Source of the DNA: Flectonema sp. DT1601
Lineage: Eukaryota
Length of the DNA: 64,000 bases
Assembly (NCBI GenBank): GCA_964019425.1
Contig: OZ025805.1
Coordinates: 372,001 to 436,000 of the forward strand
Direction: 5' to 3'
The translations under genes and the position numbers were made by a program. Below the pieces are notes generated by a model. It made no database searches. It saw only the letters and a program-made list of their open reading frames with translations, and was not told the origin of the DNA. Each line of letters begins with the position of its first letter. The stretch's first letter is position 1. Positions 1,808 to 55,779 of the stretch are shown here, piece by piece.

Positions 1808-2369
1808 ATGCAAGTTTTTGTGACGTGTCCTGATTGGGGACTCCCCGCAGTGACAGTGACGGCTGGTGCTGATTCAGTTGTGAACGACGTGTTGACAGAG
1901 GCTGCTGAGGAATGGGATGTGGATCCGGAGGAAGTTGAACTCTCGTTTGCTGGTGATACCCTTTGCGAAATTGATCGGCTGGCAGATCATGGAGTGGTTG
2001 CAAACAGCGAGTTGGAAATGTGGAAGAAGCAGTTTAGGATATTCGGTAAAAGCTGGTTTGTTGATGATGCAAAACGGGAGCAGCTGCTTCTTTGGATGAG
2101 AGATCACATTGCGGAGTATTTATGTCTGGACACTGCCACATTCGCAGAAGATGGTTGCCTAACTGTTGACGGTGACCTTCTTCCTTCAGATGCCGAACAG
2201 GTAGCTTTCCGCAATTCAAATTCCAACAGCACAGCCATGTCATCAGTTACCACTATCGGAGATGAGTTCTTGTCTTCCTGTTCACAAATTACTTCTCTTG
2301 ACCTTTCAAGTCTTAGTAGTGTCACCACTATAGGAAACTTATTCTTGTCTTCCTGTTCACAAATCACTT

Positions 2370-2437
2370 GGGATCACGACACCTGCCTCCTCGCGGCGGT
2401 CCCGGACGACTTCGATAGGGGTCGACAAAACAGTGTC
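2370..2437 (+). ncRNA. HDV-like self-cleaving ribozyme at the LINE 5' end
   Basis: P1 GGGATC/GGTCCC; P2 GACAC(C)T/AGTGTC; P3 GCC/GGC with loop TCCTCGC; P1.1 CC/GG; P4 CGACTTC/GGGGTCG; J4/2 with C2426 followed by As. P1 is 6 bp and P2 is bulged, so the fold is slightly non-canonical. Confidence 0.72.
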
Positions 2438-5341
2438 AAACACAAGAGATGCCAACAACATCAAAACCATCAAAACCAGCTACAACATCCAGAGCATACA
2501 AACCCTGGCTTGTCAAATAAAGAACGGAATAAACTAGCCCATGCCTTGAATGGCAATGGTGGACCAGGAAAGGACAGCAGAGACCGACGCCCGCGAGACG
2601 ATACTCGCGACAGGGACGAAAACCGTCCAAACAAGGAGGAACGTCGCATAGCGAAGCTCGAGAAAGAGAAACTCGACTCGCTAGACGAGATAGAGGAAGA
2701 GAAGCAACGACTGGGGCAGCAGAGAATGGCCATGGAACAGCACCACCACCAGAAGGAAACCAACCTTCAAGGACAAGAAAAACAGTTGGAACAGCAACGC
2801 CAACACCAACAACAAGAACTGCAAAGTCAGTACCACCAACAACAGCAGCAACTGCAAAGCCATCATCAGCTGAAGGAAACGGAAAGTCTCCAGAAGGAGC
2901 AAAACCTACAGGCTCAACTCAAGGAGCGACACCAGCACCAACAGAAGGAATTGGAGAAGCAATACCGCCAACAACAACAGCAACTGGAAAGCCAACAGCA
3001 GAAGAAGGACGCCGAGTCTGAACAGCAAACACATCTGACTCGGTCACAACTACAGAAGGAAAAGGAATCCTTCCAGACAGAGAAGGAACGGCTCCACCTC
3101 CAGCTGGATCAGCAGTTGAAGAACGAGAAGGAGCACCTCCACCAACAACTCCAACAGAAGGAAGACGAGGTTCGTAAAGAAAAGTTAGCAGAGAGAATAG
3201 AACTCCAACAACTGCGAGATGAACTAACTCAACAAGAACAGAACATCCAACGACGTGAGGAAGAGGTGAACCGAGGACAGCACCAACTACACCAACAACA
3301 ACAACAACTAGAGCAGCAGCAACAGCAATCGCAACATCAGCAACTGGAACTACAACAACAACGGCAACAACAGCAACAGCAACAACAGCATCAACAACTG
3401 GAACTGGAACAACAACAACTACAACAGCAACAGCAACTGCAACAACATCGACAACCGCAACAACAACCGCAACAGCAACCCGTACACTACATGCAACATC
3501 AACCGTATGCAACGTACGACACCTACGCCCAGCAGCAGCAGTCTTCCCACTACGAAGGGCTACAACAGGAACTGAAGCGGGAAAGAGAGGAGAAGAGCGA
3601 ACTACGCGAGATGCTCCGAACTCTCCAACAACAACTGGACGGATTGAGAGAAGAACTCAAGGCCCAACATGCTGAGGCGAAGAGGCAGCAGGAAACGGCG
3701 GGACGAGAAGCGAGAGAGATGCAAGAACGTTTCTTGCTAGAACTCGAAGCGGAACGGGTCCAGATCAGAGGGCTCAACTCACTGAGAGAAGAGGAAGAGG
3801 AACTTCAGATGGACACCACCCCTGATCAGGAAGCAAACACGGAAGTGAAGCAAACGCCACCAGTGAAGCTGCCCCAAGACGGTATGAGGGAGCTGGACGC
3901 CTCACGCAAGAAGCTGATGAAAGAAATCAATGAAGGGCAGGTAGCCGGACGATCGGCCATCCAAGAGCAGATGGTCCGAGAGGCCGGGAGACTGGCGCAG
4001 ACTCAGAAGAGCTGGGAGAACGCAGCACGCAAGGAGCGATCCAGGGTGGATAACCTCTCGCTGGCACCGGAATACTGGCCAGAGGGAATGGCGATCACGA
4101 AGGAGCAGTACGACGCCGGTGCAAAGGGAGTACACCTCACCACCAGAGAGGAGGCAAGGAAGAGGATGTCGGGAACACCTCCGGGAGCCTGGGAAACGTT
4201 ATCCCTGGTAACCCTGGAACCACCATCAGACACGGCGCAGAAAGTACAGGTAGTACTAAAGGAGACGACGAGCGACGGCGAGAAGAGAATTCTCAAGCAG
4301 CTCTGGATGACAACACTGGGAAGAGTGGTTGTACCATCCGGAACAGACGTCGTGCGGACGGAAAGCACGAGGGAGATGGTTGTCCGGGTGGACAAAAAAT
4401 GGTCCGGAGAGAAGAGATGGTCGGAAGTGAAGCGCTCCCCGTTCAGGGCAACGGAGGAATTGAAGAAGATGCCGGGGTATGTCGATACGTACAACCCGCG
4501 GATCGGAGACCAGAGCGTGACCGTGATGCTCAGGGTGAAGGTAGCCGAAGTGAAGAACTTCCTCCGAGAATCGGGGAAGGACGGCGTCTTCACCAAGGAA
4601 AAGGATCCGAGAGAGGAACGAGCAGTGAAGGCGGCGGTCATTTGGCTACCGAAGGACGAGACGCTCGGAATCGCTCGGGACAAGGCTGTAGAAGTCGATG
4701 GAGGGCTGGGACTCGTGGTAAACGAACACGGACTCGGGCTTCGAGTGACCAGCTGGCAGGAAACGGCGGCGAGGGAGAAACTGCACCTGCCGGCTAAGCT
4801 ACCGGAAACAAAGATCACGGGTATCCCGATCGGCACAACCACCGACGAAGCGATCAAGTGGCTGATCACGAAGGAAGGCTGGGAAGTGAGGAAGACGAAG
4901 GAAGGCGTACGGAACGGCATGCGATGGATGGTCGTCCGCGGTCCGGTGAGAACGCAGGAAACCATCACAGTGGATGGCGTCCTGTGCATGGTGGAGGCTG
5001 GGAAACAGAAGGAGGAAGTCGACCCGAAACGGAAGGAGACCAAACGCCCGAATGCGACACCGACGAAACCAGAGAAAAGGCGTGACCCGACGGAGGGAAC
5101 GGGAGGAAAGTGGTACACTCGATTGGAGTTCATCGAGTTTCATGGGAAGAAGAAGGGACAACGCCTATGGTTAGAAGCCAGCAACCCAACACCAACTACG
5201 ACGGCACCTACGAAGACAGCGACCGCAACGACAACAGCGAGAAAGGAGCCCAAGTCGACAAAAAAGAAGGAGAACAGCTCAGTGGACGAGAGATTGGACC
5301 GACTGGAACGTCTACTGATGGCGTTCATGGAACGGAATTGA
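2370..5341 (+). CDS. LINE ORF1: Q/E-rich coiled coil plus globular C-terminal region; true start uncertain
   Basis: Open from the element 5' end (in frame with host ATG 1808) to TGA 5339-5341; first in-frame ATG is only at about 2725. Confidence 0.85.
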
Positions 5342-8300
5342 CCGGCGGAGGACGGAAGGAACTGGGCGGAGACACGGAGACGTCTCCTGCTACAAGCTGG
5401 CGACGTTGAGAGGAACCCCGGACCGAGACCACGAATCGATGGGCTCACCGTGGGAACAATCAATGTCACCACACTAGAAGGAAAAATAGATGCCATCACA
5501 GATCTGAACCTAGATCTGATAGCTCTACAGGAAACTTCTCTGACGGGCCCACAGCAACGCCAGATGAAAAAACAGCTCGGTGAGAGAGGATGGGAGGCGA
5601 CGTTCGGGTTAGAGTGCAAATTACTAACCGATGGGCAAAAGACGTGGACGGCGGCGGGAGGCGTGGCCATCTTGACGCGCACTGGTACACCGGTGAGAAG
5701 GATAAAACACGATCGGCTCGACAACACAGGACGATTCGTACACGCGGGAGTGTCGTACGGAAATGGCAAGGTACTGCACGTTTTCTCGTTCTACGGAGAC
5801 GTACGTTCGGCGGTCTACACGGAAGAGTTGATTGCGGAGATGCTCGTGGAAGCAGCAGCTCTGGGTGATGTTCCCGTATTTATAGCGGGGGACTTCAACG
5901 TCGAAACAACGGAATCGCCGGCGCTTCTGTCGGCTTTCGCACACGGACTCTGGATAGATGCCGCCGTCTCGATGGGAAACATGACACCGACAAGCGAAGC
6001 GGGAAAAGGACTTCGTAGAATCGATGCTATTCTGATGAACCGCGGGGCGGCGACAGCAATCTCGAATGACACAACGATCCATGTGCATAAGAGTGAGCTG
6101 ATCCCGACACACAAGCCGGTCATCATTAGAAAGCTCAACATCTCACGCTACAACGAGAAGGCTCCTAGGCTGATAGTACCGAAACAGTTGGATACCTCCG
6201 AGACAACGGACCCGCGTGAGGGGAAGGCCGAAAGGCAACTCCACTGGACGCGAGCTGTAGCGACGGAAGATCCTGACAAGATGCTGGAGGCGCTTGGAGA
6301 GATCATCGAAAGATACCTTCTGACGGGAAAGCTGGAGATAAGTAACCCAGCCAAGTACAAGGGACGCGGGAAGAAGCGTGAGCCTGTGATGTGGACGAAC
6401 GCGGCGAAACAAGACGGGAGAGGAGCGACGTGCAGGGAAACGCGGAGAAGACTGCAGAAGATACGTGTTCTGGAGGAAGTGATGAAAATCACAAAGCAAC
6501 GCGATGGTCCGACGGTGCCGTCCCACGAAGTAATGAAACTCTGGAAAAAATTACGAAAACTCGATCCGACGACGGGATCCGAAATACCACAGACGGAGGA
6601 GCTTCGGATACTACTACAACAAGCGAGACAGGAGCAAGCGATAGAAAGCAAGAAGCTCCGAACTGAACGCATCCGCATGTGGAAACGGAATGTTGTCGAC
6701 AATTGGAATGACGACCGCACGAAGGTTTTCCAGTGGATCAGGAACGTCGAGCAATCGAAGACTGTTCTGATGGAAAAGGCAGATGGAAGCTGGACGGCCA
6801 ACTGCTCCGAGATGGATGAGGCCATGCACGCGGCATGGGACCCCATACTCAAAAAGTACTTGTCAGACCCGGAACCAGACTGGATGAAGTTCGAAGAACG
6901 GTACAGCAACTACATCGAGGAACACCCGATGCGATGCGAAGATATCACCGGGGAGGACGTTGCAAAAGCCCTCAGAAGGACTAGCTCGCGCAAAGCAGCT
7001 GGGGTAGACGGCTTCAGGATATCGGAGCTCAAGTTGCTACCGGAGGACATGATCCAGATGATAGCGGAATTCTACAACATAGTGGAGAGAACACACTGGC
7101 CGGAAGCACTTCTCACGGCACTGGTGTCGGCCATACCCAAAGGGGCAGGGACGAAACCACTGGAGCAGAGACCCATTACGGTGACATCCGCACTTTACAG
7201 GCTATGGGGCTGTATACGTATGGAAAAGGATGTAATGGAGTGGCAAGAAAAGTGGGCTCACGACGGGCAGTACGGCTACCGGAAGGGGAGATCTACGCTC
7301 GACCTCAGCTGGAAGATAGCACTAGACGTGGAACACGCAACTCTCTACGGAGAAGAGATTGCTGGAGTGACCACGGACTTCAGGAAGTGTTTTGACCTGA
7401 TCCCGCACGACATCCTCCTGAAATTAGTGAAGGAATTGGGCCTCGGTAATAAGATCCTGAGAACTGTGACGGATGTCTACCGGCGACTCAGAAGGAGATT
7501 CAAGTTCCCGAGCGGCGTCGGAGAAGAATTTGCCACCACCAACGGAATACTGCAAGGATGCCCGCTCAGCGTGGTGCTCTTCAATGCGCTGAGCTCGATA
7601 CTCAGCAAAGCAATCGAGAGGGAAGCCGATGTGACGCCCGGATCGTATGCGGACGACCTGACATTGTTTGGATCACGAACGAAGCTACAAGAAGGCGTGG
7701 AAGTCGTTGCGGAGTTCTGCACCCTGACCGGACAAGAACTCGCGCCTCAGAAATGCAAGTGGTTCTCGAACAGAGACCAGAGCCAGACCAACATCACAAT
7801 GGGGGACACAACACTGGACTTCGATGACAGTGTCGATATCGTGGGATGCCACCTCAGTATGAAAGGAACCACCAAGCAGATGGGGAGGATCACAGAAGAA
7901 GTGCTCGATAGAGCGAGGCGAATCCGGTTACTTCCGCTCAGATATCAAGCGAAGGAACAGATAGCTGCAGCTAGTGTCATGCCCAAGGCGCTCTTCGGAA
8001 CGGCACTGTACGATCCCGATGCGACGCGACTCGGACTGCTGAGAAGAGCAATGGCAACGGGGATTTTCCGCAAACTTGGAGGGAAAAGAACTAAGATGTC
8101 GCACACCATGGGCCTAACGCTACTCTGCAAGGGACATTGTGTGGATCCCGCGACGTACATTAGGTACAACAGACTCCTTGCACTCACCAGAATGCTACCG
8201 AAGCTAACTGAGAGGATACGCAGGGTATGGGAACACCTGCAAGAGCACACTGAAGCGACGAGAGGACCAGTCGGCCTCGCCCTGAGTACTCTGAAGGAAC

Positions 8301-10078
8301 TTGGATGGGAATGGTCAACTTTCTCGGTCTTCGAAGGTCCGGGAGGGACGACCGAACACGGACGGCTGGATGCGGGGCGCTGGCGGCACGATGTCAGAGA
8401 GGCGTGCAGGCGTTTCACCTGGAACAAAACAATTGCGGAAACGAGACGGGTAAACCTGAGAGGTATTGAAGCGGGCATCGACCGGAAAGAGACCCTGAAG
8501 GTCCTGAAGGAAGGAAAGGGCGACCCCTACCTGCGCGGAGTAGTGAAGCACTGCCTCCTGGACAACGTGTACACTGGTTCGATGAAGGCGGGAAACAAGA
8601 ACTGCGCGCACTGCGAGGAGGTTGACGACGTAGAGAGGACGGAGACCCTCGAGCACGTGAACTGGGATTGCAGAGCTTATGACACGATCCGACAGGAATA
8701 CCCGCAAGTGATGCTACAAGTTCGAAGCGATTGGCCCAATTGCCTGAGGCTACTCGGCATCAAGCCCGACAATGTGGAACTGCCGGCGGGGCTCACCGGA
8801 GACCTACAACGAATGTTCGCACGGATCAGGCTCCGCAGGGACGAGTACCAACAACTGGAGGAGAGACGGCTGACGGTTGTGGAATACGCTGGGAACAAAG
8901 AACCGGAAGTAGTTATGCGATACAACAACAAACTGGAAAAGTACATGCCAGTATACACCCAATGGCCCGAAGCCCTTGGATTGACCTTGTACTTAGCGCT
9001 TGCGAGCTACCTGAGGGAACTGAAGTGGCCTCGACAGCCAGACGGGGTCGGAGTCACCTTCCTGGAATTAGCGATCGACTTCGAAGCGTATGCGGGGGTT
9101 GACATACCGACCACAGTCCACGAAGGCCACGTAGCGAAGTGCACCAAAGACAGAGCCGCCGGGAAGAAAGCTGACGTCATGTGTGGACTGATGCTAAGAT
9201 TGAACTTGGTTCACAAGCATTTAGAAGGCGAGGAACAAAGAACCTTTCCCGACTACTGCGTAGGAAGCAACAAAGCCTTACGTCCACTAGGAGCCCCGGT
9301 ACTGAAAGGTTTGAAGAAACGACCAGCTTTTCTGATGGGAGACGAAACAGTAGACACAATTCGGAGGACGGTCCAAGAGGCGAACGACGGAAAAGCTGAC
9401 AAAATCAGATTCGGCTTCGAGACTGAGTGCAGGCACTCGAGCGAGAGGGAAGGGAGAGCGGAGAAATGGATAACCGCGGCACGACTTTTCCCATCAAAGG
9501 AAAAAGACGTACAGCTGAGGAGGGAGCTCTGCGAGCGAGGACCGACACGCCCGCCACCCGAGGTCGTCAAGAGACCGGGCATCGCGGAGGGACAAGGAAC
9601 GATGAACTCGACGTGCTACGGACACTTCAAGAAGAAATGCAATAGTTGTCGACGGGCCGGAAACACCATCTACCAGTGCTGCCACAACCATCACACTCTG
9701 GGGGATGAAGATGGACAAATACCGATATGGGACTTTTGCAGCAAGCACAAGCTTACTCCATGTGCAGTCTGCATAGTGATCGGCAGAGGATCTGAGCAAT
9801 GTTGCAGAAACAGCCACCACCGATGCCGTCACCACGAGATGGCTCCCTGCAACGACTGCAAGCGGAATCCGGATCCGGAACAACGGACTGCCACGAAATG
9901 CTGCAACAAAAAGCATCACGGGCCAATTATAAGGACGTTGACGAGGAGGGCGAAGCAGCCGACGAAGCATGATATGCAAACCAGCACATCGCTTCTAAAA
10001 TTAGGTTTCACCAAACAAATGAAACCAAAAGCAGAGGAAACCCCTGAAAGGGAACCCCAGGACAAGGGGTTAACTTAG
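5342..10078 (+). CDS. LINE ORF2: 2A peptide, APE endonuclease, reverse transcriptase, CCHC zinc finger, C-terminal Cys/His repeats
   Basis: APE motifs TINV, IALQET, GGVAIL, AGDFN, RIDAIL, PTHKP; RT motifs QRPIT, DFRKCFD, GILQGCPLS, YADD (7646-7657); CAHC...ETLEHVNWDC; frame is open from the base after the ORF1 stop. Confidence 0.95.
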   Translation, partial: PAEDGRNWAETRRRLLLQAGDVERNPGPRPRIDGLTVGTINVTTLEGKIDAITDLNLDLIALQETSLTGPQQRQMKKQLGERGWEATFGLECKLLTDGQKTWTAAGGVAILTRTGTPVRRIKHDRLDNTGRFVHAGVSYGNGKVLHVFSFYGDVRSAVYTEELIAEMLVEAAALGDVPVFIAGDFNVETTESPALLSAFAHGLWIDAAVSMGNMTPTSEAGKGLRRIDAILMNRGAATAISNDTTIHVHKSELIPTHKPVIIRKLNISRYNEKAPRLIVPKQLDTSETTDPREGKAERQLHWTRAVATEDPDKMLEALGEIIERYLLTGKLEISNPAKYKGRGKKREPVMWTNAAKQDGRGATCRETRRRLQKIRVLEEVMKITKQRDGPTVPSHEVMKLWKKLRKLDPTTGSEIPQTEELRILLQQARQEQAIESKKLRTERIRMWKRNVVDNWNDDRTKVFQWIRNVEQSKTVLMEKADGSWTANCSEMDEAMHAAWDPILKKYLSDPEPDWMKFEERYSNYIEEHPMRCEDITGEDVAKALRRTSSRKAAGVDGFRISELKLLPEDMIQMIAEFYNIVERTHWPEALLTALVSAIPKGAGTKPLEQRPITVTSALYRLWGCIRMEKDVMEWQEKWAHDGQYGYRKGRSTLDLSWKIALDVEHATLYGEEIAGVTTDFRKCFDLIPHDILLKLVKELGLGNKILRTVTDVYRRLRRRFKFPSGVGEEFATTNGILQGCPLSVVLFNALSSILSKAIEREADVTPGSYADDLTLFGSRTKLQEGVEVVAEFCTLTGQELAPQKCKWFSNRDQSQTNITMGDTTLDFDDSVDIVGCHLSMKGTTKQMGRITEEVLDRARRIRLLPLRYQAKEQIAAASVMPKALFGTALYDPDATRLGLLRRAMATGIFRKLGGKRTKMSHTMGLTLLCKGHCVDPATYIRYNRLLALTRMLPKLTERIRRVWEHLQEHTEATRGPVGLALSTLKELGWEWSTFSVFEGPGGTTEHGRLDAGRWRHDVREACRRFTWNKTIAETRRVNLRGIEAGIDRKETLKVLKEGKGDPYLRGVVKHCLLDNVYTGSMKAGNKNCAHCEEVDDVERTETLEHVNWDCRAYDTIRQEYPQVMLQVRSDWPNCLRLLGIKPDNVELPAGLTGDLQRMFARIRLRRDEYQQLEERRLTVVEYAGNKEPEVVMRYNNKLEKYMPVYTQWPEALGLTLYLALASYLRELKWPRQPDGVGVTFLELAIDFEAYAGVDIPTTVHEGHVAKCTKDRAAGKKADVMCGLMLRLNLVHKHLEGEEQRTFPDYCVGSNKALRPLGAPVLKGLKKRPAFLMGDETVDTIRRTVQEANDGKADKIRFGFETECRHSSEREGRAEKWITAARLFPSKEKDVQLRRELCERGPTRPPPEVVKRPGIAEGQGTMNSTCYGHFKKKCNSCRRAGNTIYQCCHNHHTLGDEDGQIPIWDFCSKHKLTPCAVCIVIGRGSEQCCRNSHHRCRHHEMAPCNDCKRNPDPEQRTATKCCNKKHHGPIIRTLTRRAKQPTKHDMQTSTSLLKLGFTKQMKPKAEETPEREPQDKGLT
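5381..5425 (+). other. 2A/StopGo ribosome-skipping peptide RLLLQAGDVERNPGP
   Basis: Exact D(V/I)ExNPGP match with the typical upstream LLLxxG, in the ORF1/ORF2 frame. Confidence 0.92.
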
Positions 10079-12181
10079 GTTGGCCGAACCAGTGCCTCGT
10101 CATCTCACCGTGCTAGCAAGCCTGAATGACAGCACTCAAAATGGTACATATATTCCTGTTCACAAATCACTTCTGTAAACCTTTCAGGTCTTAGTAGTGT
10201 CACCATAGTAGGAGGTGGATTCCTGTTTTCCTGTTCACGAGTCGTTTCTCTTGATCTTTCTTGTCTTAGTAGTGTCACCACTATAGGAAACTTATTCTTG
10301 TCTTCCTGTTCACAAATCACTTCTGTAAACCTTTCAGGTCTTAGTAGTGTCACCATAGTAGGAGGTGGATTCCTGTTTTCCTGTTCACGAGTCGTTTCTC
10401 TTGATCTTTCTTGTCTTAGTAGTGTCACTACTATTGGTGATAATTTCTTGTCTTACTGTTCACAAATCACTTTTCTCGACCTTTCAGGTCTCAATAGTGT
10501 CACCTCTATTGGTGATGATTTCTTGTATTCTTGTAAACGGATAGCAACAGTTGACCTTTCAGGTCTTAGTAGTGTCACCACTATTGGGAATAATTTCTTG
10601 TTTTCCTGTGAACAAATCACTTCTCTTGACCTTTCAGGTCTTTGCTGTGTTACTTCTATTGGAGATAGTTTCCTTTCTTTCTGTACACAAATCACTTCTG
10701 TGAACCTTTCGGGTCTTGATAGTGTAACCGCTATAGCAAATGACTTCTTGCGTTGTTGTGTATGTATTATTTCTCTTGATCTTTCAAGTCTTATTAGTGT
10801 CACCACAATAGGAAGTAATTTCTTGCGTAGTTGTTCAGAAATCACTTCTCTTGACCTTTCAAGTCTTGGTAGTGTCACCACTATTGGTGATGACTTTCTC
10901 AGTGAATGCGACGCTCTTGAATCTGTGCAGCTGCCTGAAAGTAATAGCGTTCTCTTTGAGGAGTCTGTGAAAGCAGCGATTGATCACTCAGGTTAAAGTG
11001 GTGAGTTGATTCTTAAAGTTTTGTTATTTTTGTTATTTTTGTTTTATTAATTAGTTGACCTTCGTGTACATTCTGACTAAAATATGAAAACTTCTTATCA
11101 AAGATTACGGAATAAGAACAATCATCGATTTGAGAACTACTTTAAAAGGTATTCCGGTCACATAAAAGAAAGGAAAGAAGAGTAAGAAAAGAAAATAATA
11201 ATTAAGAATATTTAAGAAAATAATATTTAAAAAAAGTAAATAAGTAAAAAAAAATGCTCCACAAGGCCGTGACCGTGGTATACGTTTCTCCAAACTTTTG
11301 GTTGGAATTGTAAGTTTTCCCTTAATAAAAAGTTCATTGTGACGATAACAACCCCATTTTTATTCTCCTTTTTAAAACTTTCTTAATATTTTATTGCATG
11401 GCATTCACTCCAGATCGAAGTTAATATTATTTTTCTTAAAACAGCGACACGGATGTAAATTATTAGAGACAGAGGCTATCCGGAATTTTACATTTTTATT
11501 AAAAATGCTTTTTTTTAATCTAAACTTCCATCACAGGATAATTTTTCTCACAAGAACTCTTGCGATGCAGGTTTCTGTAGTGTTTCCCGACTCAGGATTT
11601 GGAGATGCAGTTTTGACATCAACATCAGAGTCTGTCGTACGTGATGTTATAGAAACAGTTAACTGAGGAATGGGATGTTGTCAGAATTTATTGAGATGAT
11701 CGTATTGCGGTGATGTTTTTTAGAAAGGAATGGTTTTACTGATTTGAATAAGATAAATAAACTGCTAACACCGAGTAATGACATTTATTTTGAACAATAA
11801 AATTAGATTCGACTTGTGAGACATTTACTGTTGAAGATGTATTGATTTGATATCGAGTTGGGTAATTGTTTCCTATCTAACCTTCATTTGGTAATCTGAT
11901 CAGAGTTTACATTTGGTTGGGAATATTTGAAAAAAATAAGCAGGGAAGTTCTCCATTGATATCGGAAATGAGTACCTAGGCATGGGTCACATCCTTGTAG
12001 TGTTCACTTTCATTCATTCAGGTCACTGAAACAGATGAATCCTTTAGTAAAACAGTATTCATACCCCTTTGAGGGAATGTAATTACATGTCGCATCCTCG
12101 TAGTACTCGATACCCAGATGTCACTTGTACGAGTTCTTTCTAACAGAACCTTTCCCACCTCACAGCAAATTATTTAAAAAA

Positions 12182-14055
12182 GGGTTATGGCCCAAAATAC
12201 CCCAAAGTGGCCCAAAATACCCCGAAGTGGCCCAAAATACCCCAAAGTGGCCCAAAATACCCCGAAGTGGCCCAAAATACCCCGAAGTGGCCCAAAATAC
12301 CCCAAAGTGGCCCAAAACCCGGTCTGGCTGTGCACCCTGGGGTCCCAACCACATAGCTGGGTATGAGGATGGGTCACAGTCACCAGGTATTACTCATACA
12401 ACCATCAGGGTTTAGAGCATCACAAGCACCAGACAGGTCACCTAAATTTACTCGAAAGTTTGGGCAATTCGAACGTCAGCATTCACATTAGCAAGCAACC
12501 AGTCCTGAGTACTTAAAGAACCCAACCATTACGTGTATCAGCCACAGTCACACTTAGTATAGCGTTAGTACAGAGGACACGGATCTGCTATGCAGGGAAG
12601 TGACTTGAACTCGTTCAACTAATTAATGTGTGCAGATATAAGCGCCGCGAATTGACGGGTCTGAAGTTATGCTTTCCGAAGAGAGTAACCACCCACGCGA
12701 GTGTTATTTTGACGCCATAACCTGTAGCTTTCAACACATAACAACCAGGGATAATTCTCAGTAAGGCCGCCGTCACCGTGAAGCTGCTACGAATATAACC
12801 CAACAAACTAGCAATTCCTCCAACTTTGTTCATATGTGCAGACACATAGTCAGCTACACACTTGGAGACTTTCTTAATCTCTTTAAGCTACTTTGCTTTA
12901 GCAGTGGATCTTGCTTATACTATTTTTTTGGCTGAGTTTCAGTGGCAGCAGGTTGAGTTTCAACTATGTTTCGGGCATCTTAGAGATTGAGAATAAAAGT
13001 TCGTAGTAAAAGAGTAAAAGCCTAGAGAGAATGAAAACATTTGTGATTAGGAACCTGAACACTTTACTGAACGAAGCATCGTAGGCAACCAGTTTCCTTC
13101 GAGAATCTGCAGGTGGTGCAGGGCTAAATCGAGATGAGGAAGATAACACCCGTACACCTTAAGCGCACACGGATGTTGAGATAACGTTTGTATGATGTTC
13201 ACTTGACGAGATTATCAAAGACAAATACTCACGGATAGGTTGGGTTGCTCTTCAGGTCCTGATAGTATTCTCAGCCTCTGGAAGTTTTACTGAGTGCATG
13301 CAAAGAACGGTATGTGTGCAGGGCTGGGTCACCTTACAGAGAACTGCTGTCCTCTTACACGTCATTCCAACCGAATTTCAAAGTCAAGACACCTGCGAGT
13401 TACAGACAGCCTGGTCGCAAGCGACACTCCTGTTTCTGACCGGGTTATCAGGGTATCTAACTCATGCAGGCATGAGAGCTTTTTTAAGGCTACTTTGAAT
13501 TATCAAGAGCGCAGTACTGCCCGAAGGGTTCCCGCGTGTCAAGATGCATTTGCATGTACTGAGCAGAAGTTCCAGAAAGAAGATTACTTTTATCATTTCC
13601 CAAGTCATCACATCCTTAACCGTTTGTGTTATTAGCTTTCAATCAATCCATTACCATAAATCCACAGATGAGTGTGCTGAATAGAAAGTAAAACGGGACG
13701 GCAAAAAGCTTTTGTCCAAGTGACACAGAAATACTGGCCAGGCAGGTTCCAAAAAGAAGTTTCAAGAAAAAAAAACAAGAAAAAAAAAAAAAAAATTGGC
13801 AGTGGAAAAAGTTACAACTTGTAGTGAACAGCGAAAAAAAAAACATCACTTCCAGTTTCTGTACACACATTATCCTGATTTACAAGTTCCCAAAGCCGGG
13901 TTCGGTATATTTTGGACCACTTCGGGGTATTTTGGGCCACTTTGGGGTATTTTGGGCCACTTTGGGGTATTTTGGGCCACTTCGGGGTATTTTGGGCCAC
14001 TTTGGGGTATTTTGGGCCATTTGCAAAAAAAGTGGGGTATTTTGGGCCATTGCCC
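12182..14055. mobile_element. Non-autonomous foldback/Mutator-like DNA transposon with minisatellite TIRs
   Basis: Ends GGGTTATGGCCC... and ...GGGCCATTGCCC; arms of 20-bp tandem units GGCCCAAAATACCCC(A/G)AAGT (about 12189-12318 and 13905-14048, inverted); 9-bp TSD TTTAAAAAA at 12173-12181 and 14056-14064; empty site visible near 1795-1803. Confidence 0.88.
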
Positions 14056-14944: not shown

Positions 14945-15059
14945 TGGCCTTCCGACGCCACCTGGACCGCAACTCGTTCACAGTGCCCTACCCGGTTCTC
15001 CACCGGACCGTCTGAGCGACGGGATCCATGGGATTCAAACCCCTAAACACTGGTTAATC
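14945..15059 (+). mobile_element. 3' fragment of the ~690-bp ribozyme-headed short retroelement
   Basis: TGGCCTTCCGACGCC...CACTGGTTAAT matches the last ~115 bp of the full copies and abuts an LRR at the usual register. Confidence 0.9.
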
Positions 15060-15154
15060 TAATTGTTCAAGGATTACTTCTCTTGACCTTTCAGGTCTTA
15101 GTAGTGTCACTGTTATTGGAGATTGCTTCTTGTGTTGCTGTAAACAAATCACTA

Positions 15155-45333: not shown

Positions 45334-45493
45334 AAACACTTTCTACAATTATTGTAGAAAAGTGCTCCACTAGTAGTGAGCTAAGAACTAGTAACAGCAA
45401 AAAATATGTTTTTTTTATTTATGAACATGAAACGCAAAGTAACTACATTCCAGTCCTGCAAACTGGAATGACTCAGTCTCAACATTTGACTGA

Positions 45494-45560
45494 CTTACTT
45501 CTACACCATACTGATGAGAGAGAATAGAGGTAAGAGGTATATGGATTACTCTCGAAACCT
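45494..45560 (+). ncRNA. Candidate permuted hammerhead ribozyme
   Basis: CCATA-CTGATGA-GAGAG ... AGG-TA-TATGG ... CTCTC-GAAA-CCT, plus a 10-bp extra helix. Confidence 0.6.
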
Positions 45561-46397
45561 ATAGTTACTTTAATATGCTAAGTTGCGCATCACCCTTAGT
45601 CACTGTATTTTAAAACTAATGTTAAATTATCTTTATGTTTTTATGATACAACACAGTTGTAATTTTTACAAAATCGAACATACATCCCCCCTAGGGGGTA
45701 CAAGCATCGATTTTACGGAGATTTTGGGCACTTTCGGTTTTTTTACGGAGAACAAGTTTTTTGTGCACCTAAATTATGAGAACTGCAACATATACCCCAA
45801 AAATGGGGATTGCGATCCAAAGAAACATGTGGCTCAGATAGCTCATAATTCATCATAAGTTGTGACTTCATATAAAGAAAGTGTTGTACAAGTGTTTTCA
45901 TTAAGTATCAAAGTAGCACACGTAAACCTTCTTTAACTTTATCAGTTTCGGTTCACGGGGTTTCGTGACACAAACAAAACATCACAGTTGTTATATTATT
46001 ATTTTCTGTATAGTTCAAGATAAAGCCAATTCTCTTTTAGTAAATATAAACCCATTGTTGTTTGGTAGAGCGTAATTAACCTATTCCTTTATTAAAGATT
46101 TTTTACTGGTTGCGCCAAAACAAAACTAAAATGAAGTGCAATTTGCCGATTCCTTTTTACCCAGGTAGTACTTTTACAAAGAATGTAGAACCGAATTGGT
46201 TAAACATTTCATTACAGGAATCTAACAACATGTCGCATTCTTCGTAGTATTCGATACCCAGACATGATTCAATGTAGGGATCGTATTTATATAATTGTTG
46301 CCGCCTGGCGTTTGGAACACAACATCCACACATTCTTTACACAGCAGCCATATATTAACACCCCACAGCAAATAGTAATTCAAAAAACTAACAAACA

Positions 46398-47393
46398 ATG
46401 CAAGTTTTTGTGACTTGTCCTGATTGGGGACTCCCCGCAGTGACAGTGACGGCTGGTGCTGATTCAGTTGTGAGCGACGTGTTGACGACGGCTGCTGGGG
46501 AGTGGGATGTGGATCCGGATGAAGTTGAACTCTCATTTGCTGGTGATACCCTTTGCGAGACTGATCGGCTGGCAGATCATGGAGTGGAATTTGAAATGTG
46601 GGAGAAGCAATTTAGGATATTCGGTAAAAGCTGGTTTGTTGATAATGCAAAACGGGAGCAGCTGCTTCTTTGGATGAGAGACCACATTACGGAGTATTTA
46701 TGTCTGGACACTCCGACATTCACAGAAGATGGTTGCCTCACTGTTGACGGTAAGCTGCTTCCTTCAGATGCCAAACAGGTTGCTTTCCGCAATTCAAATT
46801 CCAACAGTACAGCCATGTCATCAGTTACCACTATCGGAGATGAGTTCTTGTTTTGCTCACAAATCACTTCTCTTGACCTTTCTGGTTTTAGTAGTGTCAC
46901 TACTATTGGTGATGATTTCTTGTCTTTCTGTTCAGGAATCACTTCTCTTGACCTTTCCAGTCTAAATAGTGTCACAACTATTGGTTATCTATTCTTGTCT
47001 AACTGTAGGCGACTCACTTCTTTGAACTTCTCAGCTCCTAGTAATGTCACCACTATTGGCTGCTTTTTCATGTCTTCCTGTTCAGGAATCACTTCTCTTG
47101 ACCTTTCAGGTCTTAGTAGTGTCACCACTATTGGAAATAATTTCTTGACTTCCTGTTCGCGACTCACTTCTGTGAATTTTTCAGGTCGTAGTAGTGTCAC
47201 CACTATTGGTGATTGTTTCTTGCTTTCCTGTTCAAAAATCACTACTCTTGACCTTTCAAGTCTAAGTAGTGTAACGGGAATTGGATTGAACTTCCTCAGA
47301 AAATGCGACTCTCTTGAATCTGTCCAGCTTCCTGAAAGTAATAGCGCTCTCTTTGAGAAGTCTGTGAAAGCAGTGATTGATCATTCAGGATAA
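46398..47393 (+). CDS. Ubiquitin-like + BspA-type LRR protein, 331 aa
   Basis: Intact ORF with family N- and C-termini; small in-frame deletion in the Ubl domain. Confidence 0.9.
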   Translation: MQVFVTCPDWGLPAVTVTAGADSVVSDVLTTAAGEWDVDPDEVELSFAGDTLCETDRLADHGVEFEMWEKQFRIFGKSWFVDNAKREQLLLWMRDHITEYLCLDTPTFTEDGCLTVDGKLLPSDAKQVAFRNSNSNSTAMSSVTTIGDEFLFCSQITSLDLSGFSSVTTIGDDFLSFCSGITSLDLSSLNSVTTIGYLFLSNCRRLTSLNFSAPSNVTTIGCFFMSSCSGITSLDLSGLSSVTTIGNNFLTSCSRLTSVNFSGRSSVTTIGDCFLLSCSKITTLDLSSLSSVTGIGLNFLRKCDSLESVQLPESNSALFEKSVKAVIDHSG

Positions 47394-48534: not shown

Positions 48535-49389
48535 ATGCAAGTTTTTGTGACGTGTCCTGATTGGGGACTCCCCGCAGTGACAGTGACGGCTGGTGCTGAT
48601 TCAGTTGTGAGCGACGTGTTGACGGCGGCGGCTGGGGAGTGGGATGTGGATCCGGAGGAAGTTGAACTCTCGCTTGCTGGTGATACCCTTTGCGAAACTG
48701 ATCGGCTGGCAGATCATGGAGTGGTTGCAAACAGCGAGTTTGAAATGTGGACGAAGCAGTTTAGGATATTCGGTAAAAGCTGGTTTGTTGATGATGCAAA
48801 ACGGGAGAAGCTGCTTCTTTGGATGAGAGACCACATTACGGAGTATTTATGTCTGGACACTCCGACATTCACAGAAGATGGTTGCCTCACTGTTGAGCGT
48901 AAGTTGCTTCCTTCAGATGCCAAACAGGTTGCTTTCCGCAATTCAAATTCCAACAGCACAGCCATGTCATCAGTTACCACTATCGGAGATAAGTTCTTGT
49001 TTTGCTCACAAATCACTTCCGTTGACCTTTCTGGTTTTAGTAGTGTCACAGTTGTTGGTGACACATTCTTGTTTTGTTCAGGAATCACTTCTCTTGACCT
49101 TTCAGGTCTAAGCAGTGTTACTACTATTGGATACAATTTCATGTTTTCCTGTTCGCTACTCACTTCTCTTGACGTCTCAGGTCTTGGCAGGGTCGCCACT
49201 ATTGGAAATAACTTCTTGTCTTGCTGTTCCAAAATCACTTCTCTTGACCTTTCAAGTCTAAGTAGTGTCACGAGAATTGGATTGAACTTCCTCAGTGAAT
49301 GCAAAGCTCTTGAATCTGTCCAATTGCCTGAAAGTAATAGTGCTCTCTTTGAGAAGTCTGTGAAAGCAGCGATTGATCATTCAGGATAA
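48535..49389 (+). CDS. Ubiquitin-like + BspA-type LRR protein, 284 aa
   Basis: Intact ORF with family N- and C-termini. Confidence 0.9.
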   Translation: MQVFVTCPDWGLPAVTVTAGADSVVSDVLTAAAGEWDVDPEEVELSLAGDTLCETDRLADHGVVANSEFEMWTKQFRIFGKSWFVDDAKREKLLLWMRDHITEYLCLDTPTFTEDGCLTVERKLLPSDAKQVAFRNSNSNSTAMSSVTTIGDKFLFCSQITSVDLSGFSSVTVVGDTFLFCSGITSLDLSGLSSVTTIGYNFMFSCSLLTSLDVSGLGRVATIGNNFLSCCSKITSLDLSSLSSVTRIGLNFLSECKALESVQLPESNSALFEKSVKAAIDHSG

Positions 49390-51348
49390 AGTAGTGAATG
49401 GGTTCATTTGTCTTTAATAATTTAAAGAAGATTCTCTGATAGGAAGATTGATACCAACAATGTCATTCAACATGTCGATTCACGTGGAGTAGCTGTTGAA
49501 GACAATTAAAACAGAAAACACGACTTCTTGATGTGGTGACGGCCTGATCAATAACAACTAATACAAATCAATTTTTTCTTACAACTGGAACTGTGATGTA
49601 GTAATTGTTAGTGAGTGTTTTAACTACTTAGTAAGAGGGAAATAATAAAAGAATGTAGTTGTTGGAACCGACTCTACTAAATTACATTACCGACAATTAA
49701 CGTTTCGGTTGGGTTGTCGGAGCAAGAAAGAGAGAAGTATTTTGTCACATGCTTGGTAGTCTTTAATATGTTTATGCTCGATTTCCTTTTCTCTATTTTC
49801 TTGTTTTAGTACTTGCCTGTACTTACTGCTGAACTGATTCGGTGAACCACAAAATCTCTTTTTTCTCAATTCAGGTGACAAGTATGTGATGCCAACCTCA
49901 TTTAAATTAGTGAGAGCAACCAATCGAATCATATTACTGTAATCATAAATAACGTGGTGTGTAAAGAAAATTAGAATGGAACAATTTAAGAAATTAAAAA
50001 GGGGACGGTGGATTTATAAAAAAGTATTGAAGCACACATTTTGACTGTAAAATAGTAGTTTTTGAGAGACCATTGGGTACCTTCAGAAGGCAATAGTCCC
50101 ATACTTTATTATAAAATGCCAGGGAGCTGGGACTCCAATCGGATCACCCTGGCCTCGCAGTATATGACCAGTTTAGGGGACAGATAACTGAGGAAGTCCT
50201 AGACTAATCCTAACAGCCTTGGTACACAAGACCAACTTTAACCAGTTCAAATGTCGATAATTTAGTATCAGAAAATCAAAAACTTTATTTGCTAAAGTGT
50301 TTTCTGTGAATGTTTCTACTATTAAAAAACTGTGATTCTCTAAAAAGGCTCGTCACGTCTCATTTGGTCTATTGCAAAGGACGGTTACAAGGACTCGGCG
50401 TCACGCGGAAACTCGAAGAAAAATGCCGAGCAGTACAGAATAGACGCGGCAGCCTCCATAGAAGACACAAGTTTTGCGAAGGTGATGTGAGGATTACTGG
50501 CCGCCTAGCACACCTCGATATGATACATTCACTTCCAATACGAGTGAATGTATTAACAGTGTGTTCAAAGAAGCTCGTCAAACCTCGATTCTGGGGATTA
50601 TAAGATCGACATGAATGTGGATCGCTAATACTTTCGCAAAGCGACGGGGGATGTATTTTGGTGAAGAGGGAGTCGCACCGCTGCCAAATGTGAAAGATGT
50701 TATTGAGTTGTCAGTAGCACTCATGGCTCAATGTACCGTGAAATAGATTAGAACAGGGAAGCTGTGAAACACATTTGTGAATTACTTTTGTACACATTCT
50801 TTACACAGCAGCCATATATTAACACCCCACAGCAAATAGTAATTCAAAAAACTAACAAACAATGCAAGTTTCCGTGACGTGTCCTGATTGGGGACTCCCC
50901 GCAGTGACAGTGACGGCTGGTGCTGATTCAGTTGTGAACGACGTGTTGACGGCGGCGGCTGGGGAGTGGGATGTGGATCCGGATGAAGTTGAACTCTCGT
51001 TTGCTGGTTGTACCCTTTGCGAAACTGATCGGCTGGCAGATCATGGAGTGGTTGCGGACAGCGAGTTGGAAATGTGGACGAAGCAGTTTAGGATATTCGG
51101 TAAAAGCTGGTTTGTTGATGATGCAAAACGGGAGAAGCTGCTTCTTTGGATGAGAGACCACATTACGGAGTATTTATGTCTGGACACTCTCACATTCACA
51201 GAAGATGGTTGCCTCACTGTTGAGCGTAAGTTGCTTCCTTCAGATGCCAAACAGGTTGCTTTCCGCAATTCAAATTCCAACAACACAGCCATGTCATCAG
51301 TTACCACTATCGGAGATGAGTTCTTGTCTTCCTGTTACCACATCACTG

Positions 51349-52047
51349 GGGTAACGAAACTCGGATAGCGCGCCTCCTCGTGGTGTTACCTGGATGCACC
51401 TTGTGTGTAACTAGAGTGCTGACGTATTGTTGTTGTTGCTGTGTATTCTTTTACCCCCGTTTTATTTTCCGGTAGCCTAACCTTTAAAAAAAAAAAAGGA
51501 CAACATAGCAGAAGGTCAGGTGATCCGGCCCGGGATACTCAGGCACCCAGAGCTCACAGGGGCCACCGGGTTTTTATTTTTTCCTTAGTGGCATGATTTC
51601 CCTTTACCCCCATTTCCTTCAAACTTCCCCCGTTTAGTCTTTTCACGCATGGGGGGATTATAAGTTCAGGTCGCCTGAAATGTATTAACAGTATCAGCCC
51701 CGCGAGTTACTCGGGGAGCTCCCATGCAATGTGTGGAGAAAGAGGCCATCCCTCCCCCTACCTCTCTGCTTTACTACGTCGTTTTTTGTGTGTGGCATTT
51801 CTTTTCTTATATTCTTTTCTTTTCAATCTTGTTCCTTCACACGCAGTTGTTCGAGCGGTTGTGAACCACCTTGGGTCTCTTACGGTCTCCAAGCTACTGT
51901 TGTGCGAAGAAACAAATCTGTTGGTGCGGTGGCCTTCCGACGCCACCTGGACCGCAACTCGTTCACAGTGCCCTACCCGGTTCTCCACCGGACCGCCTGA
52001 GCGACGGGATCCATGGGATTCAAACCCCTAAACACTGGTTAATTTTT
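51349..52047 (+). mobile_element. Short retroelement, copy B
   Basis: TSD TTCCTGTTACCACATCACTG at 51329-51348 and 52048-52067. Confidence 0.95.
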
Positions 52048-52361
52048 TTCCTGTTACCACATCACTGCGCTTGACCTTTCAAGTCTTCATAGTGTCACAA
52101 CTATTAGATACGAATTCTTGTATATCTCACGACTCACCTCTGTTGACCCTTCTAGTCTTCGTAGTGTAACATCCATTGGTTATAGTTTCTTGTCCTATTC
52201 CGAAATCACTTCTCTTGACCTTTCAGGTCTAAGTAGTGTCACAAGTATTGGTGATTATTTCGTGTCTCGTTATTCCCACATCACTGCGCTTGACTTTTCA
52301 GGTCTTATTAGTGTCACCACTATTGGAAAGAGTTTCTTGAGTTACTGTTTAGGAATCACTT

Positions 52362-53053
52362 GGGTAACGAAACTCGGACAGCGCGCCTCCTCGTGGTGTT
52401 GCCTGGATGCACCTTGTGTGTAACTAGAGTGCTGACGTATTGTTGTTGCTGTGTATTCTTTTACCCCCGTTTTATTTTCCGGTAGCCTAACCTTTAAAAA
52501 AAAAGGACAACATAGCAGAAGGTCAGGTGATCCGGCCCGGGATACTCAGGCACCCAGAGCTCACAGGGGCCACCGGGTTTTTATTTTTTCCTTAGTGGCA
52601 TGATTTCCCTTTACCCCCATTTCCTTCAAACTTCCCCCGTTTAGTCTTTTCACGCATGGGGGGATTATAAGTTCAGGTCGCCTGAAATGTATTAACAGTA
52701 TCAGCCCCGCGAGTTACTCGGGGAGCTCCCATGCAATGTGTGGAGAAAGAGGCCATCCCTCCCCCTACCTCTCTGCTTTACTACGTCGTTTTTTTGTGTG
52801 TGGCATTTCTTTTCTTATATTCTTTTCTTTTCAATCTTGTTCCTTCACACGCAGTTGTTCGAGCGGTTGTGAACCACCTTGGGTCTCTTACGGTCTCCAA
52901 GCTACTGTTGTGCGAAGAAACAAATCTGTTGGTGCGGTGGCCTTCCGACGCCACCTGGACCGCAACTCGTTCACAGTGCCCTACCCGGTTCTCCACCGGA
53001 CCGCCTGAGCGACGGGATCCATGGGATTCAAACCCCTAAACACTGGTTAATTT
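52362..53053 (+). mobile_element. Short retroelement, copy C
   Basis: TSD TTACTGTTTAGGAATCACTT at 52342-52361 and 53054-53073. Confidence 0.95.
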
Positions 53054-53148
53054 TTACTGTTTAGGAATCACTTCTGTGAACTTCTCAGGTCTTAGTAATG
53101 TCACCACTTTTGACTACCGGTTCATGTATTCCTGTTCAGGAATCACTA

Positions 53149-53854
53149 GGGTAACGAAACTCGGATAGCGCGCCTCCTCGTGGTGTTGCCAGGATGCACC
53201 TTGTGTGTAACTAGAGTGCTGACGTATTGTTGTTGTTGCTGTGTATTCTTTTACCCCCGTTTTATTTTCCGGTAGCCTAACCTTTAAAAAAAAAAAAGGA
53301 CAACATAGCAGAAGGTCAGGTGATCCGGCCCGGGATACTCAGGCACCCAGAGCTCACAGGGGCCACCGGGTTTTTATTTTTTCCTTAGTGGCATGATTTC
53401 CCTTTACCCCCATTTCCTTCAAACTTCCCCCGTTTAGTCTTTTCACGCATGGGGGGATTATAAGTTCAGGTCGCCTGAAATGTATTAACAGTATCAGCCC
53501 CGCGAGTTACTCGGGGAGCTCCCATGCAATGTGTGGAGAAAGAGGCCATCCCTCCCCCTACCTCTCTGCTTTACTACGTCGTTTTTTTGTGTGTGGCATT
53601 TCTTTTCTTATATTCTTTTCTTTTCAATCTTGTTCCTTCACACGCAGTAGTTCGAGCGGTTGTGAACCACCTTGGGTCTCTTACGGTCTCCAAGCTACTG
53701 TTGTGCGAAGAAACAAATCTGTTGGTGCGGTGGCCTTCCGACGCCACCTGGACCGCAACTCGTTCACAGTGCCCTACCCGGTTCTCCACCGGACCGCCTG
53801 AGCGACGGGATCCATGGGATTCAAACCCCTAAACACTGGTTAATTTTTTTTTTT
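53149..53854 (+). mobile_element. Short retroelement, copy D (flanks do not match)
   Basis: Left flank TTCCTGTTCAGGAATCACTA, right flank TTCCTGTTTGCGTGTCACTT; both in target register. Confidence 0.93.
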
Positions 53855-54024
53855 TTCCTGTTTGCGTGTCACTTCTCTTTACCTTTCAGGTCTTAGCAGC
53901 ATCACCACTATTGGGAGTGGTTTCTTGTCTTCCTGTTCGCGACTCACTTCTGTGAACTTCTCAGCTCTTAGTAATGTCACCACTATTGGCTGCCGTTTCA
54001 TGTCTTCCTGTTCAGGAATTACTA

Positions 54025-54717
54025 GGGTAACGAAACTCGGACAGCGCGCCTCCTCGTGGTGTTGCCTGGATGCACCTTGTGTGTAACTAGAGTGCTGACG
54101 TATTGTTGTTGTTGCTGTGTATTCTTTTACCCCCGTTTTATTTTCCGGTAGCCTAACCTTTAAAAAAAAAGGACAACATAGCAGAAGGTCAGGTGATCCG
54201 GCCCGGGATACTCAGGCACCCAGAGCTCTCAGGGGCCACCGGGTTTTTATTTTTTCCTTAGTGGCATGATTTCCCTTTACCCCCATTTCCTTCAAACTTC
54301 CCCCGTTTAGTCTTTTCACGCATGGGGGGATTATAAGTTCAGGTCGCCTGAAATGTATTGACAGTATCAGCCCCGCGAGTTACTCGGGGAGCTCCCATGC
54401 AATGTGTGGAGAAAGAGGCCATCCCTCCCCCTACCTCTCTGCTTTACTACGTCGTTTTTTGTGTGTGGCATTTCTTTTCTTATATTCTTTTCTTTTCAAT
54501 CTTGTTCCTTCACACGCAGTTGTTCGAGCGGTTGTGAACCACCTTGGGTCTCTTACGGTCTCCAAGCTACTGTTGTGCGAAGAAACAAATCTGTTGGTGC
54601 GGTGGCCTTCCGACGCCACCTGGACCGCAACTCGTTCACAGTGCCCTACCCGGTTCTCCACCGGACCGCCTGAGCGACGGGATCCATGGGATTCAAACCC
54701 CTAAACACTGGTTAATT
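54025..54717 (+). mobile_element. Short retroelement, copy E
   Basis: TSD TTCCTGTTCAGGAATTACTA at 54005-54024 and 54718-54737. Confidence 0.95.
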
Positions 54718-55779
54718 TTCCTGTTCAGGAATTACTACTCTTGACCTTTCTAGTCTCCATAGTGTCACCACAATTGATCAAGAGTATTGATCAGATCTAA
54801 GTAGTGTCACCAGTATTGGTGATGACTTTCTCGATGAATGTGACTCTCTTGAATCTGTCCAGCTTCCTGAAAGTAATAGCGCTCTCTTTGAGAAGTCTGT
54901 GAAAGCAGCGATTGATCATTCAGGATAAAGTGGTGAATTGATTCTTAAAGTTTTGTTTTTTGTAATTTTTGTTTAACTCATTACCATCGTGTACTTCTGA
55001 CTAAAATATGAAAACTTCTTATCCCTTTGAGGGAATGTAATTACATGTCCCATCCTCGTAGTATTCGATACCCAGATGTCACTTGTATAAGTTCTTTCTA
55101 ACAGCAAGTTTAGCGTTTCGATGAAATAATTCAAAAGAAGCAACGCAAGTTTTAGTGACGTGTCCTGATTGGGGACTCCCCGCAGCACTCGCTATGATGA
55201 TGATGATATCACTTCATGTGGCTCAGATAGCTCATAATTCATCATAAGTTGTGACTTCATATAAAGAAAGTGTTGTACAAGTGTTTTCATTAAGTATCAA
55301 AGTTGCACACGTAAACCTTCTTTAACTTTATCAGTTTCAGTTCACAGTTACGTGACGAACAAAACATCACAGTTGTTATATTATTATTTTCTGTATAGTT
55401 CAAGATAAAGCCAATTCTCTTTTAGTAAATATAAACCCATTGTTTGGTAGAGCGTGACTAAGCTATTCCTTTATTAAAGATTTTTTACTGGTTGCGCCAA
55501 AACAAAACTAAAATGAAGTGCAATTTGCCGATTCCTTTTTACCCAGGTAGTACTTTTACAAAGAATGTAGAACCGAATTGGTTAAACATTTCATTACAGG
55601 AATCTAACAACATGTCACATTCTTCGTAGTATTCGATACCCAGACATGATTCAATGTAGGGATCGTATTTATATAATTGTTGCCGCCTGGCGTTTGGAAC
55701 ACAACATCCACACATTCTTTACACAGCAGCCATATATTAACACTCCACAGCATATAGTAATTCAAAAAAGAAAGTAACA

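Follow-up and report, generated by a model that had tools for sequence, protein, structure and literature searches.

Two mobile elements in a 64,000-nucleotide stretch of Flectonema sp. DT1601 DNA (contig OZ025805.1, positions 372,001 to 436,000; hereafter the window, to which all positions refer) have inserted at one and the same register of the 75-bp unit that is repeated in a family of protein-coding leucine-rich repeat (LRR) genes. One is a full-length long interspersed nuclear element (LINE) of 7,783 bp, and the other is a short non-coding element present in five full-length copies (A to E) and one fragment (F); all seven lie in the sense orientation of their host genes. We conclude that target-directed retrotransposition, of the type that lacks long terminal repeats (non-LTR), into a protein-coding repeat unit is a real feature of this DNA.

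The LINE (2370-10152, + strand) is flanked by an exact 20-bp target-site duplication (TSD) on the + strand, with its left copy at 2350-2369 and its right copy at 10153-10172. Exact 20-bp TSDs also flank four of the short copies, again on the + strand: copy A (15155-15834; TSD 15135-15154 and 15835-15854), copy B (51349-52047; TSD 51329-51348 and 52048-52067), copy C (52362-53053; TSD 52342-52361 and 53054-53073), and copy E (54025-54717; TSD 54005-54024 and 54718-54737). These five TSD pairs differ from one another at 4-7 positions, and all five matched 5' junctions are exact. Given that the pairs are each exact but mutually different, the LINE and copies A, B, C, and E are independent insertions. 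Copy D (53149-53854, +) is instead flanked by two different units, both in register, and since it also has its 5' variants in common with B and one 3' indel in common with C, it is likely a recombinant. Fragment F (14945-15059, +) holds the 3' 113 bp of the short element; its right flank is in register and matches 14 of 15 bases of the broken left partner at 14687-14701, while its left side is rearranged. The first-pass annotation of this DNA had described six full-length insertions and one fragment in sense at a single LRR register, five exact 20-bp TSDs, a copy D with unmatched flanks in the same register, and no copies elsewhere in the 64 kb; the window coordinates and flanks agree with this description, and a blastn search of the window recovered no further copy of either element.

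None of the seven window copies lies outside the LRR units, even though these units make up only about 3 kb of 52.6 kb. Four further independent insertions would all hit the same register and strand by chance with a probability of 2.5e-14, which is still 2e-9 if insertions are taken to be confined to LRR units. It is scarcely credible that one or two old insertions were spread by duplication, unequal crossing-over, or conversion, or that random insertions were filtered by selection: duplication cannot yield five different TSD pairs that are each exact on both sides, selection would not be expected to prefer a single base out of 75, and paralogues as distant as 47% identity have been hit. Such processes do account for D, with its unmatched flanks and mosaic variants, and for the rearranged F, and they could also be argued from the presence of four copies in one gene and from the similar downstream units that follow A and E, but beyond D and F this explanation is largely refuted. 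The origin of all copies from a single duplicated insertion, which the first-pass annotation had itself raised as an outcome that would overturn its reading and had thought disfavoured, is rejected on the five different exact TSD pairs.

Because the insertions are in sense and in register, their junctions can be read in predicted proteins, and all seven readable junctions outside the window (six fusion proteins and one contig from sequencing run X1) lie in LRR genes at this register. In the protein cluster of the LINE's first open reading frame (ORF1), two of the six members, P0250 and P0259, extend to the 5' end, each as an LRR fusion at C-x-x-I-T, and the other four start internally. The short element was searched for with a 20-residue read-through tag, for which five proteins were listed of 12 candidates; all four that bear the tag are LRR fusions in register (P0279-P0282), and the fifth listed is a plain LRR protein. 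None of the six fusion-protein junctions is in the window and five are on contigs other than the window's, with host N-termini that are 47-90% identical to that of g1, the gene interrupted by the LINE. The X1 contig (290 bp, depth 2, a single contig), which was first found by element sequence alone, leads without a gap through the 5' junction and on into a new LRR unit, and its junction 20-mer differs from that of copy A at 6 positions. Targeting of one LRR-unit register is thus supported by the window together with 7/7 outside junctions in coding DNA.

All 13 readable 5' junctions share the residues F-[L/M]-x-x-C-x-x-x-T. The nucleotide consensus put forward in the first-pass annotation, TTnCTGTn6ATYACTn, fits all six window sites, from which it was drawn, so that this agreement is circular, as well as 12 of the 35 empty units. 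It proved too strict beyond the window: the residue before Cys is T, R, E, or G at four of the six outside protein junctions, and the I is replaced by N at one of the six and by L at the X1 site. At most one of the seven outside junctions can therefore fit, and the strict form is rejected. Separately, the downstream half of the unit includes a His codon at three of six occupied sites (A, B, and E) and in none of the 35 empty units, a post hoc observation that may reflect paralogous units.

A merely relative preference of the ingi/L1Tc kind, in which the endonuclease reads a short motif present in every LRR unit and a large number of copies sit at other places in the genome, would also place insertions at these sites. 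Half of L1Tc copies are described as associated with RHS genes, unlike the other half (PMC6967402), the outside sample is biased to coding DNA, and ORF2 pieces occur on at least ten contigs, few of which had their flanks read. We nevertheless consider it unlikely that preference is all there is, given the confinement of the seven window copies to LRR units, the location of the sole unbiased outside junction (X1) in an LRR unit, and that no full-length unfused ORF1 of the LINE's own family turned up.

The LINE has neither a poly(A) tail nor terminal repeats. ORF1 (2372-5341, +; 990 codons) shares the host LRR frame, is open from the first base of the element onwards, and ends in UGA; at the element's 5' end the continuation of the host LRR frame is the sole open frame of three, and although P0250 and P0259 have substitutions and small indels in this region, both keep it open. 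The first AUG, at 2726, lies 119 codons in and comes after a motif that is conserved in sibling families. The open 5' frame fits two accounts: translation may start at the host AUG, or initiation may be non-AUG and lie at the putative ribozyme described below, as is known from R2, in which case agreement with the host frame is a one-in-three coincidence. In composition, ORF1 consists of a Gln-rich coiled coil followed by a conserved C-terminal half that belongs to no known family, and its predicted structure is unusable (pLDDT 39.7). The UGA at its end is common to all four cluster members that reach that point, and its interpretation as a one-off nonsense mutation is rejected.

ORF2 (5342-10078, +; 1,578 codons) begins directly after the UGA in the same frame. 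A match to the 2A-like motif as defined in PMC3708506, GDVERNPGP (5399-5425, +), lies 20 codons after the ORF1 stop and is followed by an apurinic/apyrimidinic endonuclease (APE) domain (5432-6211, +; Pfam PF03372). The catalytic E, Y, D-N, D, and H of this domain are kept and are invariant across 14 aligned relatives, and its model (pLDDT 95.5) has the LINE-1 endonuclease as its best structural match (E 7e-14). The reverse transcriptase (RT) domain, with an intact YADD motif (7157-7783, +; Pfam PF00078, E 1.8e-23), has its best PDB sequence matches in LINE-1 ORF2p and R2, and a CCHC-type motif (8603-8671, +) lies downstream of it. Pfam returned no RNase H match in ORF2; the relatives P0010 and P0011 have one just after the point of the CCHC motif. 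Three Cys/His repeats (C-x2-H...C-x2-C...CC..HH; 9614-9919, +) are found towards the end of the protein, and were rejected as a unique targeting domain because many Diplonema relatives carry them too. Matches in the Atlas (0.76 for ORF1 and 0.77 for the C-terminal part of ORF2) serve as leads only. With its N-terminal APE, non-LTR-type RT, TSD, and lack of terminal repeats, the LINE is an APE-type non-LTR retrotransposon.

All full-length copies start with a fold that resembles the hepatitis delta virus (HDV) ribozyme, as the first-pass annotation had noticed. Our descriptor, which was fitted post hoc and relaxed after a stricter version found nothing, gave six matches, all at element base 1, with none elsewhere on either strand of the window and none in 200 block shuffles. 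The nested double pseudoknot (P1, P1.1, P2, P3, and P4), with a conserved L3 and a C in J4/2, is present in 6/6 copies; the LINE fold (2370-2437, +) comprises a P1 of 6 bp, a P3 of 3 bp, L3, a P1.1 of GG, a P4 of 7 bp, and a P2 of 5 bp, with a candidate catalytic C at 2426, and the fold of copy A occupies 15155-15227, its candidate catalytic C lying at 15217. The first pair (a G1 wobble) is broken in copy D, and the other changes in B and D keep the pairing. The heads of the LINE and the short element form the same helices from different sequences and have only a GCC-UCCUCG core in common. Sibling ORF1 families start with MPPRGGLGR, which is this core translated in another frame, and the core is therefore likely conserved across families. 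What is supported of the ribozyme reading is the fold, from which self-cleavage is predicted.

Copies A to E of the short element span 680-706 bp and differ from one another at 2-8 of about 690 bases. Each ends in extra T residues before the TSD or flank (2 in A and E, 3 in C, 5 in B, and 11 in D), whereas the LINE has no such tail. Read in the host frame, the short element meets a stop after 20 codons, or after 6 in B and D. Two origins were considered and rejected: an internal deletion of the LINE, of the RIME, NARTc, or SIDE type, because its ends are not in common with those of the LINE, and a tRNA-derived short interspersed element, because it contains no tRNA and its head is the HDV-like fold. 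Read coverage of the elements came from one sequencing run (X1), while runs X2 and X3 left the short element uncovered except for a chance 34-bp match; no RNA run holding the elements was listed, which says nothing on their expression.

The first-pass annotation had called the LINE and the short element a pair, a description that holds for their common target and TSD length; as they have no sequence in common, a link between them can only be proposed. Another LINE family that shares the target may instead mobilize the short element, a possibility that we regard as doubtful, if less so than the other alternatives considered here. The two elements have no 5' or 3' sequence in common, their ribozyme sequences differ, one bears a T-tail and the other no tail, and sibling families of ORF1 exist, as does the ORF2 family of P0004. 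On the other hand, register, orientation, and the 20-bp TSD length are identical for both elements, and LRR fusions were seen in 0/22 sibling ORF1 proteins, though members with their own start codon hide their flanks.

That both elements sit at one register with 20-bp duplications is likely because the ORF2 protein nicks the LRR unit at two fixed points, and we consider it probable that this protein inserts either LINE or short-element RNA there by target-primed reverse transcription. Both partners would be transcribed within a host LRR or polycistronic RNA, which the putative ribozyme would cut at base 1, so that no host sequence would be carried along. At the conserved UGA, either read-through or re-initiation would yield ORF2, which the 2A motif would then free. 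The ORF2 protein would make two nicks, one in the bottom strand at a point two codons ahead of the Cys codon and one in the top strand after a further 20 bp, and the U-run at the 3' end of the short element may pair with the nicked strand, which has an AA end at the window sites, to give the variable T2-T11 tail. If recognition is spread loosely across the unit (F-L-x-x-C-x-x-x-T), diverged paralogues would be targeted as a consequence. Each insertion breaks one paralogue, a cost that the redundancy of the family likely absorbs.

Several observations weigh against this reading of a ribozyme-headed, site-directed pair. Rfam returned no HDV match at E<=1 and only low-complexity matches, and the LINE fold has a long J4/2, which exceeds the canonical HDV form. 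No base clearly separates occupied sites from empty units beyond the circular consensus, and neither blastn nor tblastn detected similarity between the short element and the LINE. The protein test of outside junctions covers in-frame insertions in coding DNA, not intergenic copies, and the tag query itself contained LRR residues. In addition, three further full-length ORF2 copies (P0001, P0089, and P0101) fall outside the junction sample.

The explanations weighed here are not all mutually exclusive. The register could be set by RNA-DNA pairing, with the downstream LRR flank of the element RNA annealing to a loosely nicked target so that reverse transcription would be primed only where the registers agree, and this would be compatible with nicking by the ORF2 protein as an added step. 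Neither element has poly(A), the 3' sequences of the two elements differ and yet the flank would be common to both, and the targets tolerate divergence, all of which would suit such pairing; downstream rRNA sequence plays a similar role in R1Bm. We judge pairing improbable as the source of the register, since a fixed second nick at +20 still requires protein geometry, the variable T2-T11 run at the 3' junction of the short element fits an RNA ending in U, and the five right TSD copies contain no donor-derived bases. A more far-reaching account, to which we give only a slim chance, posits a LINE of strict target specificity, of a lineage separate from the R1, Tx1, and restriction-like endonuclease (RLE) clades, that lives only in a coding repeat. 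Such an element would borrow from its host its transcription, its start codon (uncut, spliced host mRNA being translated into ORF1 fused in frame to the LRR), and a 3' RNA flank by which the next insertion is steered to the same register, while an unrelated ribozyme-headed RNA would hitchhike and the inserted copies would act as recombination points that shuffle LRR units.

Among the relatives of ORF2, those that carry a name come from Flectonema neradi (whole-protein identity 56-59%) and from Diplonema papillatum, so that a diplonemid host is likely. A FastTree phylogeny built from 118 RT regions places the element in one group with P0004 and two Flectonema proteins (SH-like support 100) within a diplonemid-rich radiation; this tree consists of relatives only, with no named clade reference, and omits close copies of two families and rows of <330 aligned residues. 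The 22 sibling ORF1 proteins (clusters P0251, P0252, P0253, and P0254) are 53-63% identical in the C-terminal half, and their full-length members open with the translated ribozyme core. P0252, P0264, and P0273 are preceded by a poly-Lys run, as if 5'-truncated behind poly(A), and the head peptide is repeated in P0271. We found no ORF2 proteins matching these sibling families. Some ORF2 relatives carry an extra domain N-terminal to the APE, an OTU domain (PF02338) in P0016 and, judged by eye only, what we take to resemble cysteine-protease domains in P0017, P0002, and P0003. Scans of metagenomes gave 0 matches to the short-element pattern and confirmed 0/78 ORF2 stretches, and in viral contigs 0/5 candidates were confirmed.

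The window carries six BspA-type LRR genes with 42 repeat units of 75 bp, all on the + strand, of which 7/42 units are occupied by insertions and 35/42 are empty. Three of the six genes are interrupted, and every insertion disrupts the C-terminus of its host, which weakens the safe haven proposed in the first-pass annotation: g1 (1808-10996, +) is split by the LINE, with ORF1 fused to it in frame, g2 (14064-16077, +) is broken and contains F and A, and g5 (50862-54929, +) was hit four times (B to E). The paralogues g3 (46398-47393, +; BspA-type LRR_5), g4 (48535-49389, +), and g6 (55780-56937, +; BspA-type LRR_5) are uninterrupted. The + strand also carries 14 of the 16 ORFs of >=200 aa in the window, the remaining two being antisense within the LINE; diplonemid genes have been reported in co-oriented clusters that are probably co-transcribed and trans-spliced (PMC10161547). 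The first ~75 residues of the LRR proteins (1808-2030 in the window, and paralogues) appear ubiquitin-like by eye, with no such Pfam match at E<=0.01. In g1, a two-unit (150-bp) tandem duplication (10153-10452) lies just 3' of the LINE, and g2 is broken within an LRR unit (14699-14784) and joined to sequence that is 89% like the LRR-gene upstream region 11413-11500.

Just before the start of g2 lies a terminal-inverted-repeat element (12182-14055) with 20-bp subterminal repeat arrays, arms that are 96% complementary over 120 nt, and a 9-bp duplication (12173-12181 and 14056-14064). It has no ORF of >=150 aa, and from the length of its duplication we take it to be Mutator-like. Outside the LRR genes, a 255-bp repeat occurs at 37187-37440 and 45438-45689 with 97% identity.

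Should the ORF2 enzyme cut at these sites, a mobile element would have a coding repeat as its preferred landing site, and the turnover of LRR genes would be directly affected. Most known target-specific non-LTR elements are placed in three groups, the RLE clades, Tx1, and R1 (PMC4640811), and an APE element that belongs to a diplonemid-rich lineage and strikes a degenerate coding repeat at a single base, with exact junctions and a fixed 20-bp stagger, would represent a separate origin of target choice. As its natural targets vary widely, it would provide a test case for how APE elements choose their sites, whether by protein or by RNA pairing. RHS and the Tetrahymena LRR genes are two cases in which mobile elements are tied to a fast-evolving multigene family of protists, and this would be a third, unrelated one.

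The first-pass annotation knew of no described example of such targeting, which overlooks ingi/RIME and L1Tc/NARTc in RHS genes (PMC7563717, PMC6967402), Tt.REP (PMC6564038), and TcTREZO (PMC5814959). Our literature search, which did not extend to Repbase and most subscription papers, found no element aimed at an LRR coding unit and no precedent for a coding repeat unit as target, for a fixed 20-bp TSD without poly(A), or for an ORF1 open in the host frame that is followed by UGA, a 2A motif, and ORF2. The closest likeness is to ingi/RIME of Trypanosoma brucei and L1Tc/NARTc of T. cruzi, which likewise combine an APE-RT LINE with a short non-autonomous element, have an HDV-like ribozyme at base 1 and a 2A motif before the APE, and show a fixed TSD length and a fixed site in a protein-coding multigene family, RHS, where they make pseudogenes (PMC7563717, PMC4035085, PMC3708506, PMC3820030, PMC6967402, PMC12278014, PMC5814959); like theirs, the host here is likely a euglenozoan. 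Of the features that mark the ingi clade in these accounts, our LINE has the 2A-like motif before the APE and departs from four: it has a long ORF1 where ingi elements have a single ORF, no RNase H where these have APE-RT-RNase H, a 20-bp rather than a 12-bp TSD, and no poly(A) tail. Unlike RIME and NARTc, as they are described, our short element is not an internal deletion of its LINE, and unlike the RHS hot spot, the target is a repeated unit that offers many sites per gene, as the four insertions in g5 illustrate.

The Tetrahymena elements Tt.REP and Tm.REP are likewise two-ORF non-LTR elements tied to LRR units (76% and 86% of copies), but they lie in introns of 90-bp exon arrays and are removed from the somatic nucleus, whereas the insertions described here fall in coding sequence, at one base; the passages describing them mention no fixed base position, TSD, or ribozyme (PMC6564038). 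TcTREZO is also site-specific and found mostly in a protein-coding multigene family, the MASP genes and pseudogenes, but is a composite non-coding repeat for which the accounts we drew on name no APE-RT partner or ribozyme (PMC5814959, PMC6967402). The R2-like character proposed in the first-pass annotation fits the lifestyle, in that R2 and the SIDEs likewise combine release from a host co-transcript by an HDV-like ribozyme, a tandem-repeat target, and short dependants (PMC3774820), but not the enzymes, since R2 has one ORF, a C-terminal RLE, and a 28S ribosomal DNA target, whereas our LINE has two ORFs, an N-terminal APE, and an LRR target (PMC3774820, PMC4640811). R2 elements in which cleavage falls at the element's own 5' end are further reported to have variable 5' junctions (PMC3774820), in contrast to the exact junctions (5/5 matched) seen here. 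With two ORFs, an N-terminal APE, no RLE match in Pfam, and no rRNA match, membership of R2 was rejected. The Tx1 and R1 clades resemble the LINE in joining an APE to sequence-specific insertion, but the targets named for them are RNA genes and microsatellites (PMC4640811), and the LINE groups with diplonemid sequences.

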